Assembly: GCA_963667725.2 (NCBI GenBank)
Contig: CAXXHO010000003.1
Span: 1,760,001-1,824,000, forward strand
Direction of reading: 5' to 3'
Source: Treponemataceae bacterium
GTDB lineage: Bacteria > Spirochaetota > Spirochaetia > Treponematales > Rectinemataceae
Length of the DNA stretch: 64,000 nt
Made by a program: the position numbers and the translations under genes. Positions 1 through 14,547 of this stretch are shown piece after piece. Under the pieces are notes generated by a model. That model saw only the letters and a program-made list of their open reading frames with translations, was not told where the DNA came from and did no database searches. The first letter of the stretch is position 1. Each line of letters opens with the position of its first letter.

Positions 1-777
1 TATCACGCCACGCCCCTTCAGAAGAAAGGCATGGTTGCGGCAGGACTCTCTCTATTGATTCTCGCCGCAATCGTACTCATCGGCGTCTTGCCTTCGTGGG
101 GATTTTTCCGGACCAAGGACGGGCCGTCAATTTTCGGCGCCCAAGCAACCCAACTAGGAGCGATTGTCACCGCCATAATCTTCTTTATCGGCGTTCCAGG
201 CATCGTCTACGGCAAGGTTGTCGGGACGGTTCCCGACGGAAAGGCCCTCAGCTCGGCAATGGCCAGAGGCGTCACAGACATCGCCCCATTTATCGTCCTC
301 TGCTTCTTCGCGGGCCAATTCACCGCATGGTTCGCTAAGAGCAACCTCGGCATCGTCTTCTCCATCAATGGCGCCAATTTCCTTCGCAATATTGGCTTAA
401 GCGGGTTACCGCTCATGATATGCCTGATACTCCTGACTATAGTCCTTGATATTTTCCTTCCAAGCTCGAATGCGAAGTGGGCTATTCTGGCGCCGGTTCT
501 CATACCGATGTTCATGTTGCTCGGCTACCACCCGGCAATGACACAGATGGTGTACCGCATAGGCGACTCGATCGTGAACTCGATCACGCCGCTGATGGCT
601 TTCTTCGCCTTGCTGCTCGGCTTGGCCAAGCAATACGATAAAAAAGCGGGCATCGGAACCGTTATGTCGTTGTTGATGCCATATACCTTGATCTACGGAA
701 TCGCCTGGACCCTTTTATTCGTTATCTGGTTCCTGTTCAAGCTCCCGCTTGGTCCTGGAGGCCCATTGTTCCTTTAA
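1..777 (+). CDS. AbgT family transporter (p-aminobenzoyl-glutamate transporter-like), 5'-truncated by window edge
   Basis: Frame open from base 1; hydrophobic; AbgT-type C-terminal motifs SSNAKWAILAPVLIPMFMLLG, YRIGDSIVNSITP, GIGTVMSLLMPY, LPLGPG. Confidence 0.9.
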   Translation, partial: YHATPLQKKGMVAAGLSLLILAAIVLIGVLPSWGFFRTKDGPSIFGAQATQLGAIVTAIIFFIGVPGIVYGKVVGTVPDGKALSSAMARGVTDIAPFIVLCFFAGQFTAWFAKSNLGIVFSINGANFLRNIGLSGLPLMICLILLTIVLDIFLPSSNAKWAILAPVLIPMFMLLGYHPAMTQMVYRIGDSIVNSITPLMAFFALLLGLAKQYDKKAGIGTVMSLLMPYTLIYGIAWTLLFVIWFLFKLPLGPGGPLFL

Positions 778-851
778 GCACGTATATAAAATTGGTTGGG
801 CGGTTGCGAATCGCCGCCCGCAATGCCATTTCTTGGGAGAATAATGCAACC

Positions 852-1973
852 ATGAAGATCGAACGTATAGAATATATACCGGTGCGGATCGCGAAGCGTG
901 GCGCCAAAAACGGCCTTGAGTGGAAGACGGCGCTGGGCAATAATCCCTACGGCGATGCCGTCATCGTCATTCTTCACGTCGAAGGTGGCAACTTCGGTCT
1001 GGGAGAGGTGTCGTCCATTTGGGACGGCGGCGCAGGCAACCTCGTCGCGGGGTTCGGGAAAAGGATAGCCGATTCGATAATCGGGCTGGATGTCTTCTCG
1101 GTCTCCGATGCGGTCGCCCGGATGGACAAGGCGGTGGTCTGGAGCAAAAACCCCCTCTGCCTGAAGGCCGGCATCGAGATGGCCATGTATGACCTGATCG
1201 GCAAGCTCAAGGAGATGCCGGTCTACCAGCTGCTCGGCGGCAAGCGCCGAGAGAGCGTCCCCCTTTCCCATTCGGTTTCGATGGGCACGGTCGAGGAACA
1301 GATCGTCCAAGTGACCGAGCATGTAGCCAGCGGTTTTAAGACGGTGAAGGTGAAGGTCGGCATCGATTTTGAGCGCGACCTGGCGGCTGTGCGCGCCATA
1401 CGCGAGCGATTCGGCCCCGAACTCGGCATCCGCGTGGACGCGAACATGGGATGGCGAGATCAGAAAATGCTTCTCAATGTCGCCTATCAGCTTTCAGCGT
1501 TAGGAGTGCTCTCGATCGAGCAGCCCTTCGCCCCCCACGAGCTTGATAAACTCGCATTTCTGCGCGAGCGCAGCCCGATTCCCGTCATGCTCGACGAGAG
1601 CGTATGGGATCCCGTGGATGCCTTGAAGGCGATCAAAGCCGGCGCGGGGGATATCTTCAATATTTATGTCAGCGAGTCCGGCGGGCTCAACAAAGCGATG
1701 CAGATAGCGAATCTTTGCGAGACGGCGGGAGTGGGCTTCTGCATCGGCAGCATGCCTGAATTCGGCATCGGGACCGCGGCTGAGCTTCACTTGGGCATCG
1801 CCGCGCCGCGCATCGATCATCCCAGCGACGTGATCGGCAATCTTTATTTCGAAGACGACGTCATAGTTGAGGTCCTGCCGGTAAAGGAAGGCTTCGCCTA
1901 TGCGGTCGATCGTCCGGGTCTCGGGGTCAGCCTCGATTGGGATAAGGTAGAGAAATACCGCACCGACAAATAA
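852..1973 (+). CDS. Enolase superfamily enzyme, muconate-lactonizing enzyme/dipeptide epimerase/N-acylamino acid racemase subgroup
   Basis: AGIEMAMYDLIGK..PVYQLLGG, KVKVG (KxK), metal ligands in DAN, EQP and DES; ATG 852 with GGGAGA upstream. Confidence 0.9.
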   Translation: MKIERIEYIPVRIAKRGAKNGLEWKTALGNNPYGDAVIVILHVEGGNFGLGEVSSIWDGGAGNLVAGFGKRIADSIIGLDVFSVSDAVARMDKAVVWSKNPLCLKAGIEMAMYDLIGKLKEMPVYQLLGGKRRESVPLSHSVSMGTVEEQIVQVTEHVASGFKTVKVKVGIDFERDLAAVRAIRERFGPELGIRVDANMGWRDQKMLLNVAYQLSALGVLSIEQPFAPHELDKLAFLRERSPIPVMLDESVWDPVDALKAIKAGAGDIFNIYVSESGGLNKAMQIANLCETAGVGFCIGSMPEFGIGTAAELHLGIAAPRIDHPSDVIGNLYFEDDVIVEVLPVKEGFAYAVDRPGLGVSLDWDKVEKYRTDK

Positions 1974-2024
1974 GGCGCGGTTGAACAAGGCGCCCTTCGG
2001 GACGCCAAAGAGAGGCAGAACAAA

Positions 2025-2852
2025 TTGATCGGCAATGATTTTCCCAGCGAGATAGAGGCGCTCGACTTTCTCGATTTCTCCGTGAGCTTCGGACGCCCAC
2101 CCGTACCGTTCACCGGGGCTTGGGTGGACAAGGCGGGGCTGCTGGCCGAGATGAAACGCGTGGGTATCAGGCAGGCCGCTCCGTATCATATCCTGAGCAA
2201 ATCCTACGACGCGGACTACGGCAACAAGCTCATTCTCGAAGAGCTGAAAGACGCGCCCGAATTGATTCCGACATGGGCCGCCGTACCCAGCGAAGAGGGG
2301 ATGGGATGTTCACCCTGCGCCTTCGCTGACATGTTTGAAAAAAGCGGGGCGAAGGCTGTCAGGCTCTTCCCCTCATCGACAGGCAATCCCGCCATCGCCA
2401 CCCGATACGCTTTCGCCAAATGGTTCTATGGGGATTATCTGGAAGAACTGCAGAAGCGACAAATTCCCATTGTGCTCGAGTTTTCCCCTGGCCGGCGCGA
2501 TGAACCGGCTTGGGATAAACTCTGCGGCGTCGCCGGAGAATTCCCAACCCTGCCGATCGTGCTCTCCGACGGATTCCAGAGGACGACCTGGTCGCTCATA
2601 AAGATGATGCGCGCTTTTCCCAATCTCTATGTCCAAACCTCCGGCCTGGACGTGCACCGCCAGCTCGAATACATGGTGCAACAAGTGGGGCCGCGGCGTT
2701 TCATAGCGGGCTCCAAATTCCCCGTCTCCACCATGGGCACGATGGTGGGGCAGGTCCTTTTCTCCAACCTGCCGATCGAGCAAAAGAGACTGATCGCCGG
2801 CGGCAACGCGCGCCGGCTGATGAAGATCGCCTCGCTGAAAGGGGAGTGCTGA
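2025..2852 (+). CDS. Amidohydrolase_2 family TIM-barrel protein with degenerate metal site
   Basis: Typical layout (AEMKRVGI, FPNLYVQTS, GPRRFIAGSKFP, IAGGNARRL) but HxH and the catalytic Asp are replaced; TTG start uncertain. Confidence 0.7.
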   Translation: MIGNDFPSEIEALDFLDFSVSFGRPPVPFTGAWVDKAGLLAEMKRVGIRQAAPYHILSKSYDADYGNKLILEELKDAPELIPTWAAVPSEEGMGCSPCAFADMFEKSGAKAVRLFPSSTGNPAIATRYAFAKWFYGDYLEELQKRQIPIVLEFSPGRRDEPAWDKLCGVAGEFPTLPIVLSDGFQRTTWSLIKMMRAFPNLYVQTSGLDVHRQLEYMVQQVGPRRFIAGSKFPVSTMGTMVGQVLFSNLPIEQKRLIAGGNARRLMKIASLKGEC

Positions 2853-2853
2853 C

Positions 2854-3654
2854 ATGAGCGCCAACAAGACATATAGAATCATCGATTCCCACGCCCATAT
2901 GGGACCGGTCTGGAACTTCTATCTCCCGTATAACGACGAACAGGGGATGCTCGACAACATGGATCGGCTGGGCGTCGACACCGTGGTTTTCTCTTCCAAC
3001 CTGGCCGTGACCGCCGATGTGGAACGGGGCAACCGCTATACCCTGGAAGTCTGCCTGCGCCATCCCGGACGATACCTGGGCATGTACGCGGTGAACCCCA
3101 ACTATCCCGAAGTGGCGGCCAAAGAGATGGACAAATACTTTACCCATAAGGAAATCGTCGGCATCAAGATTCATCCAGAACTTTCAGGCGATTACCCGCT
3201 GAACGGGAAAAACTGCGCACCGATGTTCCGCTACGCGAGCGAGCGCAAGATTCCCATCCTGAGCCACACGTACTACGGCGGCGACAAGCTCAGCGTCTTC
3301 GAGGAGCTGGCGAGGGAATATCCCGACGCCCCGCTCATAATCGGCCACGGCGCCCTCGATCTCGGCACCGGCAAGGCGATCGATCTGTGCAATAAATACC
3401 CCAATCTCTATTACGACCTCTGCAGCCCTGTCAACAAACGCTATGGGGCGCTGCTGCTCGTCGACCGGGAACTGGATCCCGATAAAGCGCTCTATGGCAC
3501 TGACGTTCCGTGGAACGACCCGGCGGTCAGCCTGGGCTCGGTGCTTTTCAGCGGCGTCGCTCCCGAAAAGCTGCGCAAATGGTTCAGCGGCAACTTCCTG
3601 CGGCTCTACGCGAGGGCGGCGACAGCGCTCGACGGCGAATCCGCGCAACGGTGA
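2854..3654 (+). CDS. Amidohydrolase_2 family metal-dependent hydrolase
   Basis: IIDSHAH, GIKIHP, PILSHT, IIGHG, LYGTDVPW motifs. Confidence 0.88.
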   Translation: MSANKTYRIIDSHAHMGPVWNFYLPYNDEQGMLDNMDRLGVDTVVFSSNLAVTADVERGNRYTLEVCLRHPGRYLGMYAVNPNYPEVAAKEMDKYFTHKEIVGIKIHPELSGDYPLNGKNCAPMFRYASERKIPILSHTYYGGDKLSVFEELAREYPDAPLIIGHGALDLGTGKAIDLCNKYPNLYYDLCSPVNKRYGALLLVDRELDPDKALYGTDVPWNDPAVSLGSVLFSGVAPEKLRKWFSGNFLRLYARAATALDGESAQR

Positions 3655-3712
3655 AGACATCGAAGCCAAAGCCGAATCATAAGGCGGTCTTCGAAATACA
3701 ACAGGAGAGAAC

Positions 3713-4792
3713 ATGAACTTTGATCGAAAGTCAGTCAAAGACGATTTTGTGGCGAGCATCGCGACCCTGTGCGGGACGCACGGCGCTTCCGGCTTCGAAG
3801 ACGAGATGGTCGAGCTGGTGAAAAACATGGTTCGGGGCTATGTCGATGAGACGAAGACCGACGTGATGAACAACCTCATCGCCTTCAAGAAAGGAAACGG
3901 CAAGATGAAGGTGATGGTCGTCGCCCACACGGACGAAATCGGCCTCATCGTCAAGAAAATCGACCAGAAGGGATTTCTCTGGTTCGACACCCTGGGAGGA
4001 ATCAGGCCTCAAGCCCTTTTCGGAAAGCATGTTGTAGTGAAAACGTCTTCCGGGCTGGTAGACGGCCTCGTAAATTATATAAAGCCCGGACGAGTGGACG
4101 CCATGGAGCAGATGCCCGATCTTCAGGATTTCTTCATCGATATCGGCGCGAAAAATCTGGCGGAAGCCGAGGAGATGGGGCTCGAGATCGGAAATTCGGT
4201 ATCCATCGATTATCCCGTCTATTTCCTCGGCAAAGACAAGAATCGCGTGGCGGGCAAGGCCCTCGACGACAGAGCATGCGTCTTTCAGCTCATCGAGCTC
4301 ATGAAACTGCTCAAAGACGATGAAGACTGTCCCGATGTCTACGCCGTGTTCTCCTCCCAGGAAGAAGTGGGCTGCCGCGGCGCCAAGACCGCAGCCTATA
4401 CGATCGAGCCCGATGTGGCGATTTCACTGGACATCTCCATATCCAACGACATTCCCGACGTAGCCGAACGCAAGATCATCACCGCCCTCGACAAGGGCCC
4501 CGTCATCAAGGTCATGGACAGGTCGAAGACCACGTCGGTGGGCGTGCTTTCCGCGCCGAAAGTGGTGAGCGCGATGAAGGAAGCGGCGAAGGCGGCGGGC
4601 CTTTCCTATCAACTAGAGGTGTATTCGGCGGGGACGACGGACTCCGCCACGATGCACCTGGAGAGAGGCGGCATCGCCTCCGGAGGCGTATTGCTTCCCA
4701 CGCGTTATGTCCACAGCTATGAACTCGCGTCGGTAAATGACCTCGTCGATGGCGTCGAGCTTCTGTATCGCTATGTAAAGTCTTTGGCGTGA
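3713..4792 (+). CDS. M42 family metallopeptidase (TET aminopeptidase-like)
   Basis: GASGFE, AHTDEIG, GKALDDR, QEEVGCRGA, GTTD, PTRYVHS motifs; AGGAG RBS. Confidence 0.92.
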   Translation: MNFDRKSVKDDFVASIATLCGTHGASGFEDEMVELVKNMVRGYVDETKTDVMNNLIAFKKGNGKMKVMVVAHTDEIGLIVKKIDQKGFLWFDTLGGIRPQALFGKHVVVKTSSGLVDGLVNYIKPGRVDAMEQMPDLQDFFIDIGAKNLAEAEEMGLEIGNSVSIDYPVYFLGKDKNRVAGKALDDRACVFQLIELMKLLKDDEDCPDVYAVFSSQEEVGCRGAKTAAYTIEPDVAISLDISISNDIPDVAERKIITALDKGPVIKVMDRSKTTSVGVLSAPKVVSAMKEAAKAAGLSYQLEVYSAGTTDSATMHLERGGIASGGVLLPTRYVHSYELASVNDLVDGVELLYRYVKSLA

Positions 4793-4803
4793 AAGAAGCG
4801 TGT

Positions 4804-5322
4804 ATGGAAAAGAAAACCGATATGGACATCTACGAAAGGCTCAAGCAACTTTTGGCCGAATTGCCGCCGCACACTTCTCCGAATGGAAGCTACACGCTGA
4901 TGGCGGAGTTCGGCGGGCATTACTTGTATACCTCCGGAACCGGCTGCGCCTCGGGAGGAAAGCCCCTCGTCGTGGGCAGATTGGGAGAAGAAGTCTCGAT
5001 CGCGGACGGGCAGCGCGCGGCGCGTCAGTGCGTGCTGAACGTACTCTCCAACGCGAACGCCTACCTCGGGGACCTGAATCGCATAGGTCGCGTGGTCAAG
5101 ACCACGGTCTTCATCGCCTGCGGGGAAGCCTTTGGCGACCAGAGCGTCGTGGCCGAGGGCGCTTCCGAACTTCTCTGCGCGCTGTTCGGCGCGGAGGGAC
5201 GGGGGGTGCGCAGCGCTATCGGCGTGAGTGCCCTTCCAAAAAACCAAGCGGTGGAAATCGAGATGATTTTCGAGTTGAAGGAAATCGGAAAGGAGCGACC
5301 GAATGCTAATCCACTGGAATGA
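4804..5322 (+). CDS. RidA/YjgF/YER057c family protein
   Basis: LYTSG, VGRLGEEVS, RSAIGVSALPKNQAVEIE with conserved Arg; start could be 4822. Confidence 0.85.
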   Translation: MEKKTDMDIYERLKQLLAELPPHTSPNGSYTLMAEFGGHYLYTSGTGCASGGKPLVVGRLGEEVSIADGQRAARQCVLNVLSNANAYLGDLNRIGRVVKTTVFIACGEAFGDQSVVAEGASELLCALFGAEGRGVRSAIGVSALPKNQAVEIEMIFELKEIGKERPNANPLE

Positions 5323-6064
5323 GTTGAGCAAGGATCAGTTCAAGCGGTACCGCGATACGGCGACCGTCGCCATCAACTTCGCCTCCACCGAACAGCACTC
5401 GAGACACCTCCCGGTAGGCACCGACGCGATTCTCGGCAAGGCGGTACTGGAAGAGGCGGCCCGGCTGGCCGCTTCCCCCATGCTCGTCCTGCCGCAGGCC
5501 TGTTATGGCTATTCTCCCCACCACCGTTTCGCGCCGGGCTATGTCACCATCTCGCAGAACACGCTGATTTCCCACGCTCGGGACATATGCAAAAGCGTCT
5601 ACGAGAATGGTTTCAAAAGGATGTTCCTTGTCAATTCCCATGGCGGCAACCAGGTCTATCTCTCCGCCGTCATCAACGAGATCGGCGAGGAATATGGCGA
5701 GAAGTTTTCCCTCATGGAACTGCGGTACTGGGATGTAGCGGGCCCTCGCATCATGGAGATACGCGATTCGGCGTTGGGCGGCACAGGACACGCCTGCGAA
5801 TTCGAAACCTCGATGATGATGCATCTGCGGCCCGACCTGGTGCAGGCGGATAAAATCGCCGAATGCCCTCCGGTGCCAGGGGACCCATGGTTCCAGATGG
5901 ACCTGCTGGGGTTCAAGAAATACCTCAAGTTCTCCAATTTCAATATCTACAACCCCGACGGCCACGTCGGGCAGCCGCATCTGGCGACAGCCGAAAAAGG
6001 CAGGCTGTTCTTTGAGGCGGTCACCGAGGAACTGGCGAAATTCTTTGACTATTTCCATGTCTGA
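5303..6064 (+). CDS. Creatininase (creatinine amidohydrolase/MftE-like) family protein
   Basis: STEQHSRHLPVGTD, SPHH, VNSHGGN, GHACEFETS, ATAEKG motifs. Confidence 0.92.
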   Translation: MLIHWNELSKDQFKRYRDTATVAINFASTEQHSRHLPVGTDAILGKAVLEEAARLAASPMLVLPQACYGYSPHHRFAPGYVTISQNTLISHARDICKSVYENGFKRMFLVNSHGGNQVYLSAVINEIGEEYGEKFSLMELRYWDVAGPRIMEIRDSALGGTGHACEFETSMMMHLRPDLVQADKIAECPPVPGDPWFQMDLLGFKKYLKFSNFNIYNPDGHVGQPHLATAEKGRLFFEAVTEELAKFFDYFHV

Positions 6065-6103
6065 AAACCGATGATGAGGCGCTGAATTCGAAGGAGTTAT
6101 TTA

Positions 6104-6295
6104 ATGCCTAAATACAAGATCGAAATAAATAGGGCATGGTGCAAAGCCTGCGGGATCTGCATCGATTTTTGCCCCAAGAAAGTCCTGGGCCCCGATGAGA
6201 ACGGCAAGGCTTCGGTGGTGAGTCCGGACGATTGCACGGGCTGCTTTATGTGCGAGCGCCGCTGTCCCGATTACGCGATCAAAGTGGAAGGATGA
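6104..6295 (+). CDS. 2-oxoacid:ferredoxin oxidoreductase delta subunit (2x4Fe-4S ferredoxin)
   Basis: Two CxxCxxCxxxCP motifs; AGGAG RBS; directly upstream of alpha subunit. Confidence 0.92.
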   Translation: MPKYKIEINRAWCKACGICIDFCPKKVLGPDENGKASVVSPDDCTGCFMCERRCPDYAIKVEG

Positions 6296-6299
6296 GAAG

Positions 6300-7442
6300 A
6301 TGGCAGAACAGCAAGTAAAGCTTTTACAGGGAAACGAAGCATGCGCGATGGCGGCGCTCGACGCCGGGGTGCGGTTTTTCGCCGGATACCCCATCACTCC
6401 AGCGACGGAAATCGCCGAGATTCTCGCGAAGGAATTGCCTAAGCTGGGCGGCATTTTCATACAGATGGAAGACGAAATCGCCAGCATGGGGGCCATCATC
6501 GGCGCCTCCATCGGCGGCGTGAAAAGCCTCACCGCGACGAGCGGTCCCGGTTTCACGCTGATGCAGGAGAACTTGGGATACGCGGCGATGGTGCAGGTGC
6601 CCTGCGTCATCGTGGACGTCCAGCGCGGAGGGCCCAGCACGGGAATGCCCACCCTTCCGTCCCAAATGGATGTGATGCAGGCCCGCTGGGGAACGCACGG
6701 CGACCACCCGATCGTCGTCCTCTGCCCCTCGACCGTGTACGAGTACTACATCTTGACGATCAAGGCCATCAACTTTTCCGAAATGCTGAGAACGCCGGTC
6801 ATCCTTCTGGCCGACGCGATCGTGGGACATCTGCGCGAGAAGGTGATTATCCCCGATAGTTCGGAAATCGAACTGGTCGAACGGAAGCGAGCCGCCCTGC
6901 CGGCAAAGGACTTCTTGCCATTCAAGCCGGATGATGACGATGTGCCGCCCTTCATGCCCTATGGCATCGGTTACCGGTATCACATGACCAGCAACAACTA
7001 CGATGAGGGCGGATACCCCGCCACCAACGATTCGCAGGTAGCGGTCAAACTGCTCACCCGTCTGCATCGCAAGGTCGAAAAGCGCCGTGGCGAAATAGTC
7101 ATGACGGAAGAAATCATGATGGACGACGCCGAAATAGCGCTGTTCGCCTATGGCTGCACTGCCCGCTCGGCGCGCAGCGCGGTCGAGACGGCACGCCGAC
7201 AGGGCATAAAGCTGGGCCTGATAAAGGCTCTCACGCTCTGGCCCTTCCCGCGGGAAGTAGTGGAAAAATACGGGGACAAAGTAAAAGCGATCATCGTCGC
7301 CGAAATGAACATGGGGCAGCTTGTCGGCGAAGTGGAGCGCGCGCTGAAAGACAAAAAGGCGGCCGTGCGCCAGGTGAACAGGTTTGACGGGAAAATGATA
7401 ACGCCCGACCAGATTCTCGATGCCGTAAAAGAGGTGAGGTAA
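6300..7442 (+). CDS. 2-oxoacid:ferredoxin oxidoreductase alpha subunit (KorA-like)
   Basis: GNEA, AGYPITPAT, QMEDEIAS, TATSGPG, QRGGPSTG, EMNMGQL. Confidence 0.95.
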   Translation: MAEQQVKLLQGNEACAMAALDAGVRFFAGYPITPATEIAEILAKELPKLGGIFIQMEDEIASMGAIIGASIGGVKSLTATSGPGFTLMQENLGYAAMVQVPCVIVDVQRGGPSTGMPTLPSQMDVMQARWGTHGDHPIVVLCPSTVYEYYILTIKAINFSEMLRTPVILLADAIVGHLREKVIIPDSSEIELVERKRAALPAKDFLPFKPDDDDVPPFMPYGIGYRYHMTSNNYDEGGYPATNDSQVAVKLLTRLHRKVEKRRGEIVMTEEIMMDDAEIALFAYGCTARSARSAVETARRQGIKLGLIKALTLWPFPREVVEKYGDKVKAIIVAEMNMGQLVGEVERALKDKKAAVRQVNRFDGKMITPDQILDAVKEVR

Positions 7443-8261
7443 ATGTCAGCACATGTTCAGGATTATCTGAGAACGAACAAGATGCCTCATATTTGGTGCC
7501 CCGGATGCGGTACTGGCATCGTGCTCGGGGCGGTGGTGAGGGCTATCGCCACTATGGGATACAAGCGCGACGAGGTCATGGTCATCACCGGGATCGGATG
7601 CTCGGCGAGGACCAACGCCATCATCGATTTCAATACCTTCCAGACAACCCACGGCAGGGCTCTCAGCTTTGCCACCGGATTCAAGCTCGCCAGGCCCGAA
7701 ATGAAGGTAATCGTGATTACCGGCGATGGCGACGGCGCCGGAATAGGGGGAAATCACCTGATTCAGACCTGCCGCCGGAATATCGACATCACGACGATAC
7801 TGATCAACAACAGCATCTATGGCATGACGGGCGGCCAGTATTCCCCGCTGACCCCGATGGGGAAATACGCCACGACCTCGCCCTATGGAATGATGGAGCA
7901 ATCTTTCGATGTCTGCAAGCTCGCCGAAGGCGCCGGGGCGAGCTATGTGGCCAGAAGCACAGCATACCACGTGACGCTGCTGGAACAGCTCATCACCAAG
8001 GCGATGGCGCACGAAGGGTTTTCCTTTGTGGAAGCCGTGTCCCAGTGCCCGATCGGCTTCGGGCGCCGCAACAAGATGAAAACGCCCACCGCGATGCTCG
8101 AGTGGCAACGCGACAATGCCGTGAACGTAAAGGCGGCCGCCGCGATGAGCCCCGAAGCGCTGGAGGGCAAGTTTACGATAGGCGAGTTCGTGAACAAAAA
8201 CGTTCCCGAATTGGTGAAGGCATACGCGGAGCTGAATAAAAACTGCGGCGCGAGAGGATAG
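7443..8261 (+). CDS. 2-oxoacid:ferredoxin oxidoreductase beta subunit (TPP-binding, KorB-like)
   Basis: WCPGCG, GIGCS, HGRA, GDGD...NN TPP motif, YGMTGGQYSP. Confidence 0.95.
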   Translation: MSAHVQDYLRTNKMPHIWCPGCGTGIVLGAVVRAIATMGYKRDEVMVITGIGCSARTNAIIDFNTFQTTHGRALSFATGFKLARPEMKVIVITGDGDGAGIGGNHLIQTCRRNIDITTILINNSIYGMTGGQYSPLTPMGKYATTSPYGMMEQSFDVCKLAEGAGASYVARSTAYHVTLLEQLITKAMAHEGFSFVEAVSQCPIGFGRRNKMKTPTAMLEWQRDNAVNVKAAAAMSPEALEGKFTIGEFVNKNVPELVKAYAELNKNCGARG

Positions 8262-8265
8262 GACG

Positions 8266-8802
8266 ATGGAGCGAAAAGAAATAGTAATAAGCGGCTCGGG
8301 CGGTCAGGGCGTCGTTCTGGGCGGGATTATCCTGGCCGAAGCCGCCGCGATCTACGACGACCTCAATGCCACGCATAATCAATCGTATGGACCCGAAGCG
8401 AGAGGCGGAGCCAGCAAGTCAGAAGTGATTATAAGCGAAGGCGCGATTCATTTCCCCGAAATCGAAAACCCCGATATCCTCGTGGCGCTGACTCAGGAAG
8501 CGATCAGGAAGTATGGGAATACCATAAAAACCCAAGGAATACTCATCGTGGATTCCAAGGTCAAGGTGGATGAAAATCTCAAAGAAAGGGCGAAAACCTT
8601 CAGCCTCCCGATAGTGGAAACGGCGATCAACAAGGTTGGCAATGAGGTCACGGTCAACATGGTAACGTTGGGCGCTCTCGTCGCCATCACCAAGATCGTA
8701 AGCAGGGAAGCTATGGAGAAGGCGGTGCTCAATCGGATTCCAAAAGGGACGGAAGAGCTAAACAGGAAAGCATTGGCGGAAGGTTTCGCGCTGGCGGAAT
8801 AA
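8266..8802 (+). CDS. 2-oxoacid:ferredoxin oxidoreductase gamma subunit
   Basis: SGSGGQGVV, QSYGPEARGGAS, NMVTLGA. Confidence 0.95.
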   Translation: MERKEIVISGSGGQGVVLGGIILAEAAAIYDDLNATHNQSYGPEARGGASKSEVIISEGAIHFPEIENPDILVALTQEAIRKYGNTIKTQGILIVDSKVKVDENLKERAKTFSLPIVETAINKVGNEVTVNMVTLGALVAITKIVSREAMEKAVLNRIPKGTEELNRKALAEGFALAE

Positions 8803-8842
8803 GCCAGGAAAATTTGCGCTGGTGAACAAAGGGAGAATGGTC

Positions 8843-10279
8843 ATGGCAGTCAAGACAAAGGCCGAATACATCGAATCGTTGAGAAAATTGAAACCAACGG
8901 TCTATATGTTCGGCGAGAGGGTCGAGAATTTTGTGGACAATCCCAGAATCAGGGCGGGGATCGAGGCGACGGGGGAAACCTATGCGGTCGCCGAAAGCCC
9001 CGAACATCGCGATTCGATGATAACGAAGAGCAGCCTGATCGGGGAGGACATCAATCGCTTCACTCTGCCTCCCGGATCGCGGGAAGACTTGGTGGCGAGA
9101 GTGAAAAACAACAGGATGCTCGGCGGCAGGGTCGGGACTTGCTTCCAGCGCTGCACTGGCCTGGACTGCATCAGCGCCCTTTCCATCGTCACCTACAACA
9201 TCGACCAAAAGTATAAAACTCAGTATAACGCCAGGTTTCTGGAATTCCTGAAATATGTCCAGAAAAACGATCTAACCTGCAACGCCGGCGTGACAGACGT
9301 CAAGGGCGATCGTTCGCTGGGGCCCTTCGAGCAGGCGGATAAGGACCAGTATTTGCGCGTGGTCGAAGAAAAGGAGGACGGCATCGTCGTGCGCGGAGCC
9401 AAGGCGCATCAGACCGGCTCCCTCTCTTCGCATGAGATCATCGTGCTGCCGACGCGCGCGATGAAAAAAGAAGACAAGGACTACGCCATCGCTTTCGCGC
9501 TTCCCGTGGATACGCCCGGAATCATCCACGTCGTCGGAAGGTCCACGCTGGACATGCGCGAGCTTCAGGGCTGCGATCGAGGGAATATAAAATACTCCAA
9601 ATATTGCCCCACGGTGATTTTCAACGATGTGTTCGTCCCCTGGAGCCGGGTGTTCATGTACGGCGAGACGGAATTCGCCGGAGAGCTGGTGATGCGCTTC
9701 TCCTCATTCCACAGGCAGAGCCATGGCGGCTGCAAGGCGGGGAAGATCGACTGCATGATCGGCGCCGCCATGAACATGATGGAATACAACGGCACGCAGA
9801 AAGTGAGTCACCTCCGCGAGAAAATCATCGACATGATCCACAGGGCGGAAACCCTGTACGGGTGCAGCATCGCCGCCTCCTATGAGGGGGATCAACAAGC
9901 CTCCGGCACGTATTTCATAGATCCCGTCCTCGCGAACGCCTCCAAGCTGCACGAGGGGAAGGAGATGGCCGAAGTCGGAAGGCTCCTGATCGATATAGCC
10001 GGCGGCTTCGCCTGCGACTTGCCTTCCGACAAGGACTTCGAAAATCCCGAGATCGGCCCACTGCTGAAGAAGTATATGAAGGGCTCCGAGAGCGTTTCGG
10101 CCGAAGATCGCATCAAGATGCTGCGATTGGTCGAAAAGTTGACTCAGGAGAGCGCCGACACCGTGTCGGATATACATGGCGGAGGTTCGCCGGAAGCGCA
10201 TAGGATAACGATAATGCGCGAGTCCGATGTGGAAGGCAAGAAAAAGCTGAGCAAAAGGCTCGCCGGGATAGAGAGCTAA
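8843..10279 (+). CDS. abfD: 4-hydroxybutyryl-CoA dehydratase-like (AbfD/HpaB family) FAD/4Fe-4S enzyme
   Basis: CFQRC and HRQSHGGCK supply the 3 Cys + His cluster ligands; TDVKGDRS, VRGAKAHQTG, HGGGSP. Confidence 0.85.
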   Translation: MAVKTKAEYIESLRKLKPTVYMFGERVENFVDNPRIRAGIEATGETYAVAESPEHRDSMITKSSLIGEDINRFTLPPGSREDLVARVKNNRMLGGRVGTCFQRCTGLDCISALSIVTYNIDQKYKTQYNARFLEFLKYVQKNDLTCNAGVTDVKGDRSLGPFEQADKDQYLRVVEEKEDGIVVRGAKAHQTGSLSSHEIIVLPTRAMKKEDKDYAIAFALPVDTPGIIHVVGRSTLDMRELQGCDRGNIKYSKYCPTVIFNDVFVPWSRVFMYGETEFAGELVMRFSSFHRQSHGGCKAGKIDCMIGAAMNMMEYNGTQKVSHLREKIIDMIHRAETLYGCSIAASYEGDQQASGTYFIDPVLANASKLHEGKEMAEVGRLLIDIAGGFACDLPSDKDFENPEIGPLLKKYMKGSESVSAEDRIKMLRLVEKLTQESADTVSDIHGGGSPEAHRITIMRESDVEGKKKLSKRLAGIES

Positions 10280-10308
10280 GTGGTTTAAAGAAACGAGGAG
10301 CTAAAGTC

Positions 10309-11490
10309 ATGAGGAATGTAGTCATCGTCAGCGCGGTGAGGACGGCGGGCGGGAGTTTTGGTGGCGCTTTCAAGAATCTCACGGCGGTGGATCTCGGGGC
10401 CGCTGTGGTCGGAGAATCGGTACGCAGGGCGGGAATAGCCCCGGAAGACGTTGGCCAGGTCATATTCGGCAATGGCTGGCAGGCGGGCGTCGGGCCGAAT
10501 CCGGCGAGGCTGTGTACGGTGAAGGGAGGGCTCCCTGTCAGCTGCCCCGCTTTTACGGTGAACCTGCGCTGTGCCTCAAGCCTGCGCGCTATCGAATTGG
10601 GTGCGCTGAGCATCGCCGCCGGCGAGGAAGATATAGTCCTGGCTGGCGGCACCGAGTCATCCACGCAGGTGCCCTTTATCATGCCCACGCTCCGGTGGGG
10701 GCAGCGCATGGGGGACGGCAAGGCCTGTGATGTGCTGCATAAGGATGGATTCATGTGCCAGCTGGCGGGGATGATGATGGGCAACACCGCCGAACTTCTC
10801 GTCGACAAGTATGGCATCTCCCGCCAGGAACAGGATCAGTTTTCCCTGGAAAGCCACCTGAAGGCGTTGAAAGCCATGGAGGGAGGCCTCTTTGACGAAG
10901 AAGTGCTGCCGATGACGATCCAGGAAAAGAAAGCCGTCAACGTGGTGAAGAGCGAAGAAATTCCCCGCGACGACATATCTCTCGAAAAGCTTGGAAAGCT
11001 GCCGCCCGTATTCCTTGAAAAGGGAACGGTGACGGCGGGGAACAGCTGCGCTCTGTGCGACGCTGCGTCGGCGGTGCTGCTGATGTCGGAAGAGAAGGCC
11101 AGGGAAAAGGGCCTCAAGCCGATGGCGGTCATACGTTCATATTCCTATGTGGCCCTCGACCCGAAATCCATGGGTTTGGGACCGGCCCTGGCCATACCGA
11201 AGGCGCTGAAGAAGGCGGGGCTCGCGTTGCGCGATATCGACTTGATCGAATTGAACGAAGCCTTTGCGGCACAGGTCATCGCCTGCGACCGGGAACTTAA
11301 GCTGGACAGGAGCAAGCTCAACGTGAACGGCGGCGCCATAGCTCTCGGGCATCCCGTGGGCGCTACCGGAGCCAAAATACTGACGACCCTTCTCTATGCT
11401 CTGAAAAACAGGGACAAGAAATTGGGCATGGTCAGCCTTTGCATAGGCGGCGGACAGGGCGTGGCCCTGATCGTCGAACGACTGAATTGA
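10309..11490 (+). CDS. Acetyl-CoA C-acetyltransferase (thiolase)
   Basis: NLRCASS catalytic Cys, NEAFAAQ, NGGAIALGHPVGATG, LCIGGGQG. Confidence 0.95.
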   Translation: MRNVVIVSAVRTAGGSFGGAFKNLTAVDLGAAVVGESVRRAGIAPEDVGQVIFGNGWQAGVGPNPARLCTVKGGLPVSCPAFTVNLRCASSLRAIELGALSIAAGEEDIVLAGGTESSTQVPFIMPTLRWGQRMGDGKACDVLHKDGFMCQLAGMMMGNTAELLVDKYGISRQEQDQFSLESHLKALKAMEGGLFDEEVLPMTIQEKKAVNVVKSEEIPRDDISLEKLGKLPPVFLEKGTVTAGNSCALCDAASAVLLMSEEKAREKGLKPMAVIRSYSYVALDPKSMGLGPALAIPKALKKAGLALRDIDLIELNEAFAAQVIACDRELKLDRSKLNVNGGAIALGHPVGATGAKILTTLLYALKNRDKKLGMVSLCIGGGQGVALIVERLN

Positions 11491-11528
11491 TATAACCGAT
11501 TAAACTGATGTGACGCGAGGAGAATACA

Positions 11529-12413
11529 ATGCGGACGATCTTTATTATCGGGGCCGGAACGATGGGACGGGGTATAGCCCAGGTCGCCGCCCAGGCGGAG
11601 AACGATGTCTATCTTTCCGATATGAGCTTGGATCTCGTAAAAAAGAATCTTGAAATTGTCAAAGCCGGCCTGGACAAGCAAATTGAAAAAGGAAAGATGA
11701 CCAAGGACGAAGCCGAAGGCATCATGGGGCGGATCCATATGGTCGAAAACCTGGATAAGGTCGAAAATGCCGATTTCGTCATCGAGGCCGTCCTGGAAGA
11801 TATCGCTTTAAAGCAAAACATCTTCAGGGAACTGGACGAAAAGACAAAGCCGGAAGCCATCCTGGCCACGAACACGACCTCCTGTTCCATCACGCAGATC
11901 GCCTCGGCGACAAAAGCCCCCGAGCGGGTCGTCGGGATGCATTTTTTCAACCCGCCGGCGATCATGAAACTCGTCGAAATCATGCCGGGCCTGCTCACTT
12001 CGAAAAGCGCTTTGGAGCGGACGAAAGAACTCGCGCTGAGCCTGGGCAAAGATCCCGTAGTCACCAAGACCGAGGGACCGGCGGGCGTCACGAGCCGGAT
12101 ATTGTCAGGCATGCTCAATGAGGCGGTGTGGGTGTTGCAGGAAGGCATCGCTTCCGTCGATGAGATCGACAAGGCGATGGTCCTGGGCTGCAACCACAAA
12201 ATTGGGCCGTTCGCCCTGATCGATCTCATCGGCGTGGATATTCATCTCGCGAAGACGCAGATGCTTTACAAGAAAACCGGCGACGCGCGGTACAGGCCCT
12301 GCTATCTTCTGGAACAGATGGTGACTGCCGGCCTCCTCGGGAAGAAGACCGGGGTGGGATTTTACGACTATTCCACGGATCCGGTTGAGCCGTCGGCGTT
12401 TTTTAAACGATGA
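11529..12413 (+). CDS. 3-hydroxyacyl-CoA (3-hydroxybutyryl-CoA) dehydrogenase
   Basis: GAGTMGRGIA, IEAVLE, ATNTTS, GMHFFNP, LGKKTGVGFYDY. Confidence 0.95.
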   Translation: MRTIFIIGAGTMGRGIAQVAAQAENDVYLSDMSLDLVKKNLEIVKAGLDKQIEKGKMTKDEAEGIMGRIHMVENLDKVENADFVIEAVLEDIALKQNIFRELDEKTKPEAILATNTTSCSITQIASATKAPERVVGMHFFNPPAIMKLVEIMPGLLTSKSALERTKELALSLGKDPVVTKTEGPAGVTSRILSGMLNEAVWVLQEGIASVDEIDKAMVLGCNHKIGPFALIDLIGVDIHLAKTQMLYKKTGDARYRPCYLLEQMVTAGLLGKKTGVGFYDYSTDPVEPSAFFKR

Positions 12414-12446
12414 GCAAAAAATCCGCTATGAAGGCAGGCTGTAGAC

Positions 12447-13223
12447 ATGGATAACTATTTTTCCTATGAAAAAGCGGAGGGCGTCGGCCGTTTGATCATC
12501 GACAATCCGCCGATGAATGCCCTATGCGACGACATGGTGGAGGAACTGGATAAGATTCTCGCGACCCTTGAGCGTGATGGCGAACTGAAGGCGCTCGTCA
12601 TCACTGGCGCCGGCGGGAAAGCCTTTATGGCTGGCGCCGATATACGCGAGTTGGGCGAAAGGGATTTTATCCAGGGCCGCGCGCAGACCCAACGACGCCA
12701 GGCGGTCTACAACCGGATCGCCGATTTCCGCGCGCCCACGATAGCGGCGGTAAATGGCTATGCCCTGGGCGCGGGGCTGGAACTCGCCCTGTCTTGCAGC
12801 ATCCGGGTCGCCTCTGAAAACGCCAAGTTCGGCGCCCCGGAAATCAATCTGGGGATAATTCCCGGCGATGGGGCGACGCAGCGTCTTCCCAGGATCATCG
12901 GATTGGGAAGAGCCATGCACATGATTCTTACGTCGGAGATGATAACGGCCGATGAAGCCCTGCAGTATGGCCTCGTCACGAAGCTCTTCCCTCTGGATGA
13001 GTTCGCGGAAGGTGTAAACGCGATGGCGCGGAAGCTCGCGAAAAAGGCTCCATTGGCGTTGATGTATGCCAAGGAAGCCGTAAATAGATCCTTCGATGCC
13101 GCCCTGTCGGTCGGCTTGACCATGGAATCTTATCTGCACGCGTTGGCCTGCGCGAGCGAGGACAAGGAAGAAGGCGTAAAGGCCTTTCTCGAAAAGCGGG
13201 AACCCGCGTTCAAGGGAAAGTGA
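12447..13223 (+). CDS. Enoyl-CoA hydratase (crotonase)
   Basis: AFMAGADI, VNGYALGAGLELA, PEINLGIIPG, EGVKAFLEKR. Confidence 0.93.
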   Translation: MDNYFSYEKAEGVGRLIIDNPPMNALCDDMVEELDKILATLERDGELKALVITGAGGKAFMAGADIRELGERDFIQGRAQTQRRQAVYNRIADFRAPTIAAVNGYALGAGLELALSCSIRVASENAKFGAPEINLGIIPGDGATQRLPRIIGLGRAMHMILTSEMITADEALQYGLVTKLFPLDEFAEGVNAMARKLAKKAPLALMYAKEAVNRSFDAALSVGLTMESYLHALACASEDKEEGVKAFLEKREPAFKGK

Positions 13224-13254
13224 ATCCCGCGGTGGCGACAGAAATGGAGGGATC

Positions 13255-14547
13255 ATGTTCGAATGGAAAGGTGAGACCCAGGCTGAGCTACCCAGGATTT
13301 GCGCCGTGGAGCAGCGGTTTGATACTTCCGGCATCGATGTCCGGGAAGGTATCCGCGCCGAACTGGCGAAGCCGGAGATCAAGAAGCTGCTGATTCCGGG
13401 GCTGAAGGCGGCGGTCGCCGTCGGAAGCCGCGGCATAGGCGAAATCGACATCATCGTGCGGACCATTGTCGACGAGCTCAAGAAAAGCGGTCTGACCGTT
13501 TTCATCGTCCCGTCGATGGGGAGCCATGGCGGCGCCACGGCCGAGGGGCAAATCGAATACCTGGCAGGTTATGGAATAACCGAAGAGTCGATGGGCGTTC
13601 CCATCCGATCTTCAATGGAGGTCGTCGAACTTGGGGAAGTGGAGCCGGGTGTCAATGTCTTCTTCGACAGGATCGCCTTTGAAGAAGCCGATTTGATCAT
13701 TCCCATCAATCGCGTCAAATGCCACACCGGTTTCAAGGGGCCGGTCGAGAGCGGACTCTACAAAATGCTGGTGATAGGCATGGGCAACCATATCGGCGCC
13801 TCGCGCATCCATGCCTTGGGATTCCCTCGCTTCAGGGAGCTGATTCCCAAGACCGGAGAGTTCATTCTCGGCAAGGTTCCCGCCGTCCAGTTCGGCATCG
13901 CGATTGTCGAGAATGCCCAGGATCTTCCATCCATCATTGAGGCTGTTCCCGCGAAGGAATTTAAGACGCGAGAACCGGAACTCCTGGAATTGTCGCGACT
14001 ACTGATGCCTCGATTGAATTTTTCCAACATCGACCTATTGGTCATCGGCGAATTGGGCAAGAATATCTCGGGAGCGGGGCTCGACCCCAACGTGACCGGT
14101 CGCTTTTGGATGTCTCACATGGAAGATGGCCCCCTGATCTGTAACAGGATAGTCCTGCTCGACCTGACTCCGGAATCCCACGGGAACGCCATGGGGGTGG
14201 GCATGGCGGACGCGATTAGCAGAAGATTGTTGGATAAAATCGATTTCAACGCCACTTACACGAACGCGATCACCGCGGGGAGAATCGAGAAAGCCCGCGT
14301 TCCTATGGTCATGAAGGACGACAGGGACACGATCAAGATCGCGCTCCAAGCCATCGGATTGGCTCCAGGGCAAAAGCCGCGGATTGTAATCATTAAAAAC
14401 ACGTTGGAACTGGAACAAATCCATGTTTCTGAAGGGTTGATGGAGGAGGTTAAGGTTAATCCCAACCTGGTGATATTAGGTTATCCTCGAGAAATGCAGT
14501 TTGATGAAGGTGGAAACCTGATTCTAGATTTTCAGCCATTACACTAA
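13255..14547 (+). CDS. LarA (lactate racemase) N-terminal domain-like protein (DUF2088/DUF362-like)
   Basis: AVGSRGI, PSMGSHGGATAEGQ, INRVKCHT, ESGLYKMLVIGMG, GKNISGAGLDPNVTGR. Confidence 0.75.
   Translation: MFEWKGETQAELPRICAVEQRFDTSGIDVREGIRAELAKPEIKKLLIPGLKAAVAVGSRGIGEIDIIVRTIVDELKKSGLTVFIVPSMGSHGGATAEGQIEYLAGYGITEESMGVPIRSSMEVVELGEVEPGVNVFFDRIAFEEADLIIPINRVKCHTGFKGPVESGLYKMLVIGMGNHIGASRIHALGFPRFRELIPKTGEFILGKVPAVQFGIAIVENAQDLPSIIEAVPAKEFKTREPELLELSRLLMPRLNFSNIDLLVIGELGKNISGAGLDPNVTGRFWMSHMEDGPLICNRIVLLDLTPESHGNAMGVGMADAISRRLLDKIDFNATYTNAITAGRIEKARVPMVMKDDRDTIKIALQAIGLAPGQKPRIVIIKNTLELEQIHVSEGLMEEVKVNPNLVILGYPREMQFDEGGNLILDFQPLH

Follow-up and report, generated by a model that had tools for sequence, protein, structure and literature searches.

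4-Hydroxybutyryl-CoA dehydratase/vinylacetyl-CoA delta-isomerase (AbfD), represented by the enzymes of Clostridium aminobutyricum (1U8V) and N. maritimus (6VJR), is widely used as a marker of butyrate pathways and of archaeal carbon fixation. Two further systems are close to the locus described here: the oxidative branch of Stickland metabolism, in which an imine gives a 2-oxoacid and then, by a 2-oxoacid:ferredoxin oxidoreductase (OFOR), an acyl-CoA, and the 2-hydroxyglutarate pathway of Acidaminococcus fermentans (HgdH, GctAB, HgdCAB and Gcd). The latter pathway of glutamate fermentation is outlined in the accessible part of PMC8473912. We analysed a 64,000-nucleotide stretch (the window) of a Treponemataceae bacterium genome (GCA_963667725.2, contig CAXXHO010000003.1, positions 1760001-1824000; genome G000, 97% complete with 6.3% contamination), whose first 14547 nucleotides carry 16 genes that include an OFOR and a variant of AbfD. 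This is a real, conserved and apparently undescribed gene set, likely a single catabolic operon, of two modules around a variant radical enzyme. Tentatively, and with somewhat less than even confidence, we propose that it takes up a modified amino acid and turns this into a dicarboxylic 2-oxoacid bearing a hydroxyl group, which would then pass through 4-hydroxyglutaryl-CoA and glutaconyl-CoA to acetyl-CoA. Like the Stickland oxidative branch, this route would run from imine to 2-oxoacid to acyl-CoA, but it would further dehydrate and beta-oxidise the acyl-CoA, and the operon lacks an aminotransferase and an amino-acid dehydrogenase. Glutaconyl-CoA is the predicted intermediate in common with the 2-hydroxyglutarate pathway; unlike that pathway, the window route would dehydrate a 5-thioester without an ATP-dependent activator.

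All 17 genes (the 16 and a regulator gene to their left) are syntenic in a genome of the same genus (G099, 92-99%) and in one of another genus (G135, 71-87%), and three metagenome loci (L052, L054, L055), near-copies of the G099 and G135 types, also carry the 16 genes for the transporter and the enzymes. Against G135, dN/dS was 0.02-0.12 in 11 of the 14 genes tested, synonymous sites being saturated in the other three. The sequence-only reading of the window had taken the 16 genes as a single set that would stand or fall with the co-occurrence of its upper (1-6064) and lower (6104-14547) halves; the halves do occur together in both of these genomes, but elsewhere they are separable and have other partners. 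Two further loci (G220 and L053) retain the regulator, the enolase, the Rid protein, the creatininase and the lower half (in L053 to the contig end), and at neither is there AbgT, either amidohydrolase or M42; the second amidohydrolase has no match anywhere in G220. The core is therefore made up of enolase, Rid and creatininase, without these four genes. One locus (L059) has the lower half alone, without the upper, and in Firmicutes the upper-half genes occur without the AbfD variant (L032, L034-L038). Judged by gene neighbourhood, the upper and lower halves are mobile modules with differing partners. The cluster is rare: among 301 genomes from the order, 16 had an AbfD-like match, and in only four did it exceed 80%. 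No published pathway with such a gene set, which would have made the operon a known one, was found in the full-text literature searched, a corpus with few of the subscription papers that are the main venue for such enzymology; the name 4-hydroxyglutaryl-CoA was likewise not mentioned there.

The AbfD variant (8840..10279; HMM and alignment to AbfD) is about 46% identical to the C. aminobutyricum enzyme, and a fold search with its AlphaFold model returned the AbfD fold (TM 0.81), of the HpaB/acyl-CoA dehydrogenase-like type. The accessible part of 10.1101/2020.02.05.935528 gives C99, C103, C299 and H292 as the cluster ligands of AbfD, and T190, E257, Y296 and E455 as important for dehydration. 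In all of the 120 top-listed homologs (of 7681 found, the window's own protein included) the four Fe-S ligands are retained, as C101, C105, H291 and C298, and E257 is replaced by C256, Y296 by H295 and E455 by S443 (with D444). Three of the four important non-ligand residues are thus lost, whereas the equivalents of T190 (T192), K300 and R90 are kept; A460 has become G448, and K254, K302, H371 and E372 have been gained, the Lys and His at invariant positions. When the retrieved loci are taken together, the signature shows two modes, with 90 variant rows, 20 canonical (E/Y/E) and 5 other, rows of the same genome being counted repeatedly; named variant carriers include Syntrophobacter fumaroxidans and Thermanaerosceptrum fracticalcis. 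Further AbfD-like variants (L014-L018, L051; 35-41% identity) show different combinations of residues at the catalytic sites.

With three of the four dehydration residues gone, there is no default assumption that the substrate is plain 4-hydroxybutyryl-CoA, and the loss of two glutamates with the gain of lysines and histidine would suit a carboxylated one. The general logic of the sequence-only reading, import followed by formation of a 2-oxoacid, its conversion by OFOR and acyl-CoA oxidation, still fits. That the variant is nevertheless a 4-hydroxybutyryl-CoA dehydratase, with Cys, His and Asp as substitute acid/base residues, an OFOR acting on 5-hydroxy-2-oxopentanoate and crotonyl-CoA leaving via Crt, Hbd and Thl, would agree with the AbfD fold, the complete set of Fe-S ligands and the retained T190 and K300 equivalents, and Crt, Hbd and Thl are the usual crotonyl-CoA set, for which a decarboxylase would be unnecessary. 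We regard this as rather unlikely, given that the residues named in the accessible part of 10.1101/2020.02.05.935528 are invariantly changed and that the canonical AbfDs among the fetched loci (20 rows) retain E/Y/E. Three other assignments were rejected: malyl-CoA has no gamma-hydroxyl; deamination of 4-aminobutyryl-CoA does not go with acidic residues lost and basic ones gained; and for the canonical route from succinyl-CoA to 4-hydroxybutyrate the operon, where reductases were looked for, has none. The alternative we prefer, possible though short of an even chance, is that the variant is an activator-free FAD/[4Fe-4S] 4-hydroxyglutaryl-CoA dehydratase, a widespread substitute for Hgd in syntrophs and other anaerobes that would connect 2-hydroxyglutarate or a C6 hydroxy-oxoacid with glutaconyl-CoA. 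In this operon an unrecognised modified amino acid would feed it by way of a new enolase of the Tyr type, the creatininase-like amidase and Rid.

The genes adjoining the variant are consistent with an acyl-CoA substrate of more than one origin. Among the best 80 of 329 metagenome relatives, with partner genes scored within 6 kb, 20 loci had an OFOR, 33 a SucCD-like ligase, none had both and 27 had neither, 20 of these last with less than 4 kb of upstream sequence; after clustering at 90% identity the 44 clusters divided into 14, 13 and 17, respectively. Such mutual exclusion is expected if the two are ways of making one thioester, and the substrate of the lower half is likely an acyl-CoA made by the OFOR or by the ligase. 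Neither partner is AbfT, and neither GctAB nor a SucCD-like ligase is known as a usual partner of 4-hydroxybutyrate, which again speaks against the plain dehydratase. The gate loop of the ligase beta subunit reads NVYGGINPIH, as compared with NIFAGINRCD in a protein annotated as malate-CoA ligase and with the NIFGGIVRCD of SucC; its Asn (GGIN) also occurs in the malate-CoA ligase (AGIN), where SucC has Val (GGIV), and the ligase is a candidate 2-hydroxyglutarate-CoA ligase. An FAD dehydrogenase in seven ligase loci scored 275 bits as type-2 glycerol-3-phosphate oxidase and 231 as L-2-hydroxyglutarate oxidase, both below cut-off. The ligases form a divergent SucCD-like clade with a NVYGGINPIHEG loop (e.g. 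L124:5042-6181, L106:6892-7761), mostly with a GntR gene between ligase and variant. A protein of about 290 amino acids without a Pfam match recurs near OFOR-AbfD variant loci (L075:11638-12528, L060:16799-17665).

The Firmicute loci place the upper half in a different metabolic setting. In three of them (L032, L035, L038) it is adjoined, in two different arrangements, by gctA-gctB-ferredoxin-OFOR-AraC, the GctB scoring 353 bits to 1POI_B; in one genome (G305) hgdC-hgdA-hgdB-gcdA-gcdB lies on the other side of gctA, so that genes of the 2-hydroxyglutarate pathway replace the AbfD variant beside the upper half. The hgdB gene was present in all five Firmicute carriers examined (G305 and all four others) and had no match in G000 or G135, both carriers of the variant, and the variant was not found in the same five Firmicutes, in three of which the AbfD matches reached only 40-49% and were not of the variant type. 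The Gct-linked OFOR of G301 is 72% identical to that of G305; among 399 genomes of the class scored, only G301 itself had it, with seven others at 56-58%. The operon described for A. fermentans lists no OFOR in the accessible part of PMC3035267. A single thioester, 4-hydroxyglutaryl-CoA, accounts for both contexts: in Firmicutes GctAB could shift the CoA to C1 for HgdAB, and an AbfD-type enzyme could dehydrate the gamma-hydroxyl directly. Work by Buckel in 1981 is said to have found that both isomers are formed by GctAB, which does not accept C4 dicarboxylates; this would speak against an OFOR that produces succinyl-CoA. A 2015 report reportedly describes glutamate synthesis via 2-hydroxyglutarate in Syntrophus and may already hint at such an enzyme.

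Both the Gct and the AbfD contexts would also be covered if the variant were a delta3-delta2 isomerase only. Rid would then release 2-oxohex-4-enedioate from a 2-aminomuconate-type imine (2-aminomuconate deaminase being itself a Rid protein), OFOR would form the 5-thioester of glutaconate, and the variant, or GctAB in Firmicutes, would yield glutaconyl-CoA. AbfD mutants were assayed with far less enzyme for isomerisation than for dehydration, to go by the accessible part of 10.1101/2020.02.05.935528. We nonetheless think this scheme very improbable: an enzyme that simply isomerises would hardly be expected to keep four Fe-S ligands, and LarA and hgdCAB are left unexplained.

The OFOR itself has four subunits in a Kor/Oor-type layout: delta (6104..6295; 63 aa, with two CxxCxxCxxxCP motifs of a 2x[4Fe-4S] ferredoxin), alpha (6300..7442; PRK08659, 545.8 bits, cut-off 411), beta (7443..8261; HMM) and gamma (8266..8802; HMM). 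Its scores missed the 2-oxoglutarate synthase equivalogs (alpha 393.8 < 579; beta 310.9 < 364), and the nearest solved relative of beta is 8YS5, a 2-oxoglutarate oxidoreductase. Both the window beta subunit, which keeps the C-S-A-R motif, and the Gct-linked one have, at the third position past the Cys, the Arg of 2-oxoglutarate oxidoreductases (R63 of 6N2N), which binds the distal carboxylate. The relationship to 8YS5 would also suit an ordinary 2-oxoglutarate:ferredoxin oxidoreductase (KGOR) as a side branch, with the upper half yielding glutamate or 2-oxoglutarate and the variant fed from elsewhere, by a 2-hydroxyglutarate dehydrogenase or an AbfT-like transferase 38 kb upstream; the known cargo of AbgT is N-acyl-glutamate, hgd genes occur in five of five Firmicute carriers, and the Gct-linked OFOR was not found in three. 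Such an arrangement is, in our judgement, quite improbable, since the operon has neither a 2-hydroxyglutarate dehydrogenase nor a CoA-transferase, OFOR genes of several lineages stand immediately ahead of the variant, and the genome has a second OFOR that is likely the housekeeping KGOR. That second OFOR (G000:C3:464531-474150, L139) lies near genes that by eye are MeaB-like, methylmalonyl-CoA epimerase-like and Na+-type methylmalonyl-CoA decarboxylase-like, and a route from succinyl-CoA to propionyl-CoA is likely there. The transferase (L002:1980-3305, where L002 = G000:C3:1722001) is of the AbfT/acetyl-CoA hydrolase type and has no evident pathway neighbours.

Several observations weigh against the proposed route through 4-hydroxyglutaryl-CoA. 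The AlphaFold model of the variant has a pLDDT of 70.7 and is low near several of the changed residues. In a tree of OFOR alpha subunits the AbfD-linked proteins fall into three groups and the Gct-linked ones into a fourth, with no supported single clade. Among Firmicute carriers, several of whose genomes are small and probably incomplete, G302 and G303 have the upper half with an OFOR of only 59% and, where it could be seen, a standard gct-gcd-hgd operon at another site, no Gct-linked OFOR was found in G304, and hgd genes are in any case common in such glutamate fermenters. The best match to GcdA in G000, which is also its sole carboxyltransferase match, is 24% and of MmdA type. No natural source compound of 5-hydroxy-2-oxoadipate, our best guess for the 2-oxoacid, could be named, and that name was unmatched in the literature searched. 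The palindromic operator described below was found neither before gctA in L032 and L035 nor anywhere in L038. Finally, most variant-linked OFORs of other loci have Trp at the position of the beta Arg, and many OFOR-type loci have sugar-acid neighbours.

These last two points fit as well with oxidation of 2-keto-3-deoxy sugar acids by the lower half. OFOR would then form 3,4-dihydroxybutyryl- or 3,4-dihydroxyglutaryl-CoA, the variant would remove the 4-hydroxyl to give a 3-oxoacyl-CoA for the thiolase, and an N-acyl amino sugar acid would be the source from which the upper half produces the keto-deoxy acid. A Trp-type beta subunit suits a neutral substrate; IlvD-, UxaA/GarD-, DHDPS- and KduD-like genes and TRAP transporters adjoin variants; and the thiolase gene directly follows the variant in L057, L059 and the window. 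Among the 20 OFOR loci of the neighbourhood scan, eight have a LarA-superfamily gene of group 22 and eight a D-2-hydroxyacid dehydrogenase, and IlvD, TRAP and uronate genes stand in the rows of Table S1 of PMC7583248 that we interpret as group 22. Sugar-acid oxidation is unlikely all the same, though it deserves serious weighing: it does not account for the association with gctAB and hgd/gcd seen in Firmicutes and gives no reason for the retention of Crt and Hbd in a genome in which no acyl-CoA dehydrogenase was detected.

On the 4-hydroxyglutaryl-CoA proposal, AbgT would import a peptide-bound or N-acylated modified amino acid, and M42 and the amidohydrolase pair would release or deacylate it. 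The one-lysine enolase might catalyse a beta-elimination, the creatininase-like enzyme the opening of an amide or lactam, and Rid the hydrolysis of an imine to the 2-oxoacid. OFOR would convert this to the 5-thioester of 2-hydroxyglutarate (4-hydroxyglutaryl-CoA), CO2 and reduced ferredoxin, and the variant, using radical chemistry of the AbfD type, would eliminate the gamma-hydroxyl to give glutaconyl-CoA. The thiolase Thl (10309..11490; HMM), the Hbd-like 3-hydroxyacyl-CoA dehydrogenase (11529..12413; 3HCDH) and the Crt-like enoyl-CoA hydratase (12447..13223; ECH), the latter two below cut-off, would perform the final steps, starting from crotonyl-CoA formed by decarboxylation or else passing through 3-oxoglutaryl-CoA. 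Neither gctAB, hgdCAB nor gcdA has a match in G000, so that the 2-hydroxyglutarate pathway was not recovered there; without GcdA, decarboxylation would need the variant itself or the 3-oxoglutaryl-CoA route. Acyl-CoA dehydrogenase and SucCD were also without a match in that genome.

The upper-half enzyme families named by the sequence-only reading, like those of the lower half, are all supported by HMM assignment, with the refinements that its AbfD is a divergent variant and that its first amidohydrolase lacks HxH. Enolase, M42, Rid, creatininase, Hbd and Crt score below specific NCBIfam cut-offs and are established at family level. The enolase (852..1973; HMM MR/MLE and active-site residues) shares with L-Ala-D/L-Glu epimerase, N-succinyl-amino acid racemase and cis-3-hydroxyproline dehydratase of the MLE subgroup the KxK motif (K166-x-K168) and the metal ligands D196, E223 and D248, but it has Tyr272 for the second catalytic Lys, lies below all NCBIfam cut-offs and has its best solved relative at E 1.6e-43. 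Tyr272 is present in all 120 listed homologs, and the Lys ending strand 6 of two-base MLE enzymes is missing, which suggests a one-base elimination, for which o-succinylbenzoate synthase (OSBS) is a precedent. An Arg-bearing Rid and a one-base enolase together fit an imine intermediate. In a profile search only the centre genome had an enolase match among 301 genomes of G305's order and among 251 of its own phylum; plasmid matches, whether to the enolase or to the amidohydrolase, were remote (27-33%), with a different strand-6 motif in the enolase of Aminobacter, and an ESM Atlas search returned family names only.

Rid (4804..5322; HMM) keeps the arginine of its R-S/T-A-I-G motif. The creatininase-like protein (5303..6064; HMM) falls short of the creatininase, MftE and IolN cut-offs (TIGR04448 114.1 < 235; MftE 97.7 < 172; IolN 70.2 < 245); a profile search matched 2 of 351 genomes, the second with a 42% relative in a sugar-type locus, and its clade is similar in size to that of the enolase (45 and 36 close clusters, respectively). 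The creatininase-like clade reaches Muriventricola aceti, Flintibacter sp. and Aminivibrio (P0279, P0353, P0297), and G000 has at least eight creatininase-family and at least five aldehyde:ferredoxin oxidoreductase-like matches, some of which may lie on duplicated contigs. The two Amidohydro_2 genes (2025..2852 and 2854..3654; HMM) are 1 bp apart; the first protein lacks the N-terminal HxH in all eight copies shown, its own included, the second has a D-S-H-A-H motif, and a catalytic/non-catalytic pair with the first as non-catalytic partner is possible. The M42-family metallopeptidase (3713..4792; PF05343, 3e-80) and the 3' part of the AbgT-family transporter (1..777; PF03806, 3e-82) complete the upper half.

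At the other end of the operon, the LarA-like protein (13255..14547) passes NF052515 of LarA superfamily group 22 (498.8 bits, cut-off 400) and has motifs that, matched by eye, correspond to LarA Arg75, His108, His174, Lys184 and His200. The function of group 22 is listed as unknown in PMC7583248 (Table S3), and the accessible part of PMC11770544 does not mention the group. No larB, larC or larE match was found in G000, nor was larC in any of the three relatives searched, yet the gene is kept in G000, G099, G135 and G220 with a conservation like that of its neighbours, despite the missing matches to genes for the NPN cofactor; the protein may scavenge this cofactor or use another. If a cofactor is available, it could racemise the 2-hydroxy-carboxylate end of the substrate.

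The 16 open reading frames, all on the + strand between 1 and 14547, are separated by -20 to 74 bp, with purine-rich ribosome sites before most starts. The co-directional layout with tight gaps thus holds, every gap being below 75 bp, as does the absence of a clear terminator: a scan gave 18 sites where 18.2 are expected by chance, none of them within a cluster gap, and the 39-bp junction between the halves folds with only -3.9 kcal/mol. The cluster was also rightly expected to continue beyond the left edge of the window. AbgT (521 aa) starts 788 bp before it, at L001:19212 (L001 = G000:C3:1740001-1760000), and further left lies the regulator that was to be looked for, a YheO/DauR-like protein (PAS_6+HTH_22 by HMM; L001:18149-18841), which is followed by a terminator-like hairpin (L001:18860-18894; 13 bp, -21.4 kcal/mol, then a T run), a sigma70-like promoter (TTGCCA-17-TATACT; L001:18971-18999) and, between this and AbgT, an operator-like 35-bp imperfect palindrome (L001:19010-19044). 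The spacing, the promoter and the lack of a terminator support a single operon across both halves, likely under the YheO-type regulator.

The top palindrome match directly follows a promoter-like sequence in all nine intergenic regions examined, with 0-14 mismatches, as read by eye and with several regions from near-identical strains. In a leave-one-out matrix test with five distinct sites, four ranked first in their own locus and that of G135 second. G135 has a further operator copy outside the training set (32.2 bits), between the creatininase and OFOR delta genes and overlapping a promoter-like TTGCGT-17-TACAAT ahead of the lower half. In that genome a separate promoter, subject to this regulator, thus likely serves the lower half; this recurrence makes it likely that the halves share one regulator. 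The operator was not found in L133 or L059. A weaker match (21.1 bits) just upstream of the regulator gene (G000:C3:1758061) could reflect autoregulation.

A large clade annotated as 4-hydroxybutyryl-CoA dehydratase thus has another active site and other partners, and misannotation would matter in an enzyme so often used as a marker. The operon gives a context for three uncharacterised families, the Tyr-type enolases, the creatininase-like clade and LarA group 22. If our proposal is true, the variant would add a radical dehydration of a new kind and would take the place of Hgd without needing an activator, and the operon would be a new anaerobic route to acetyl-CoA.

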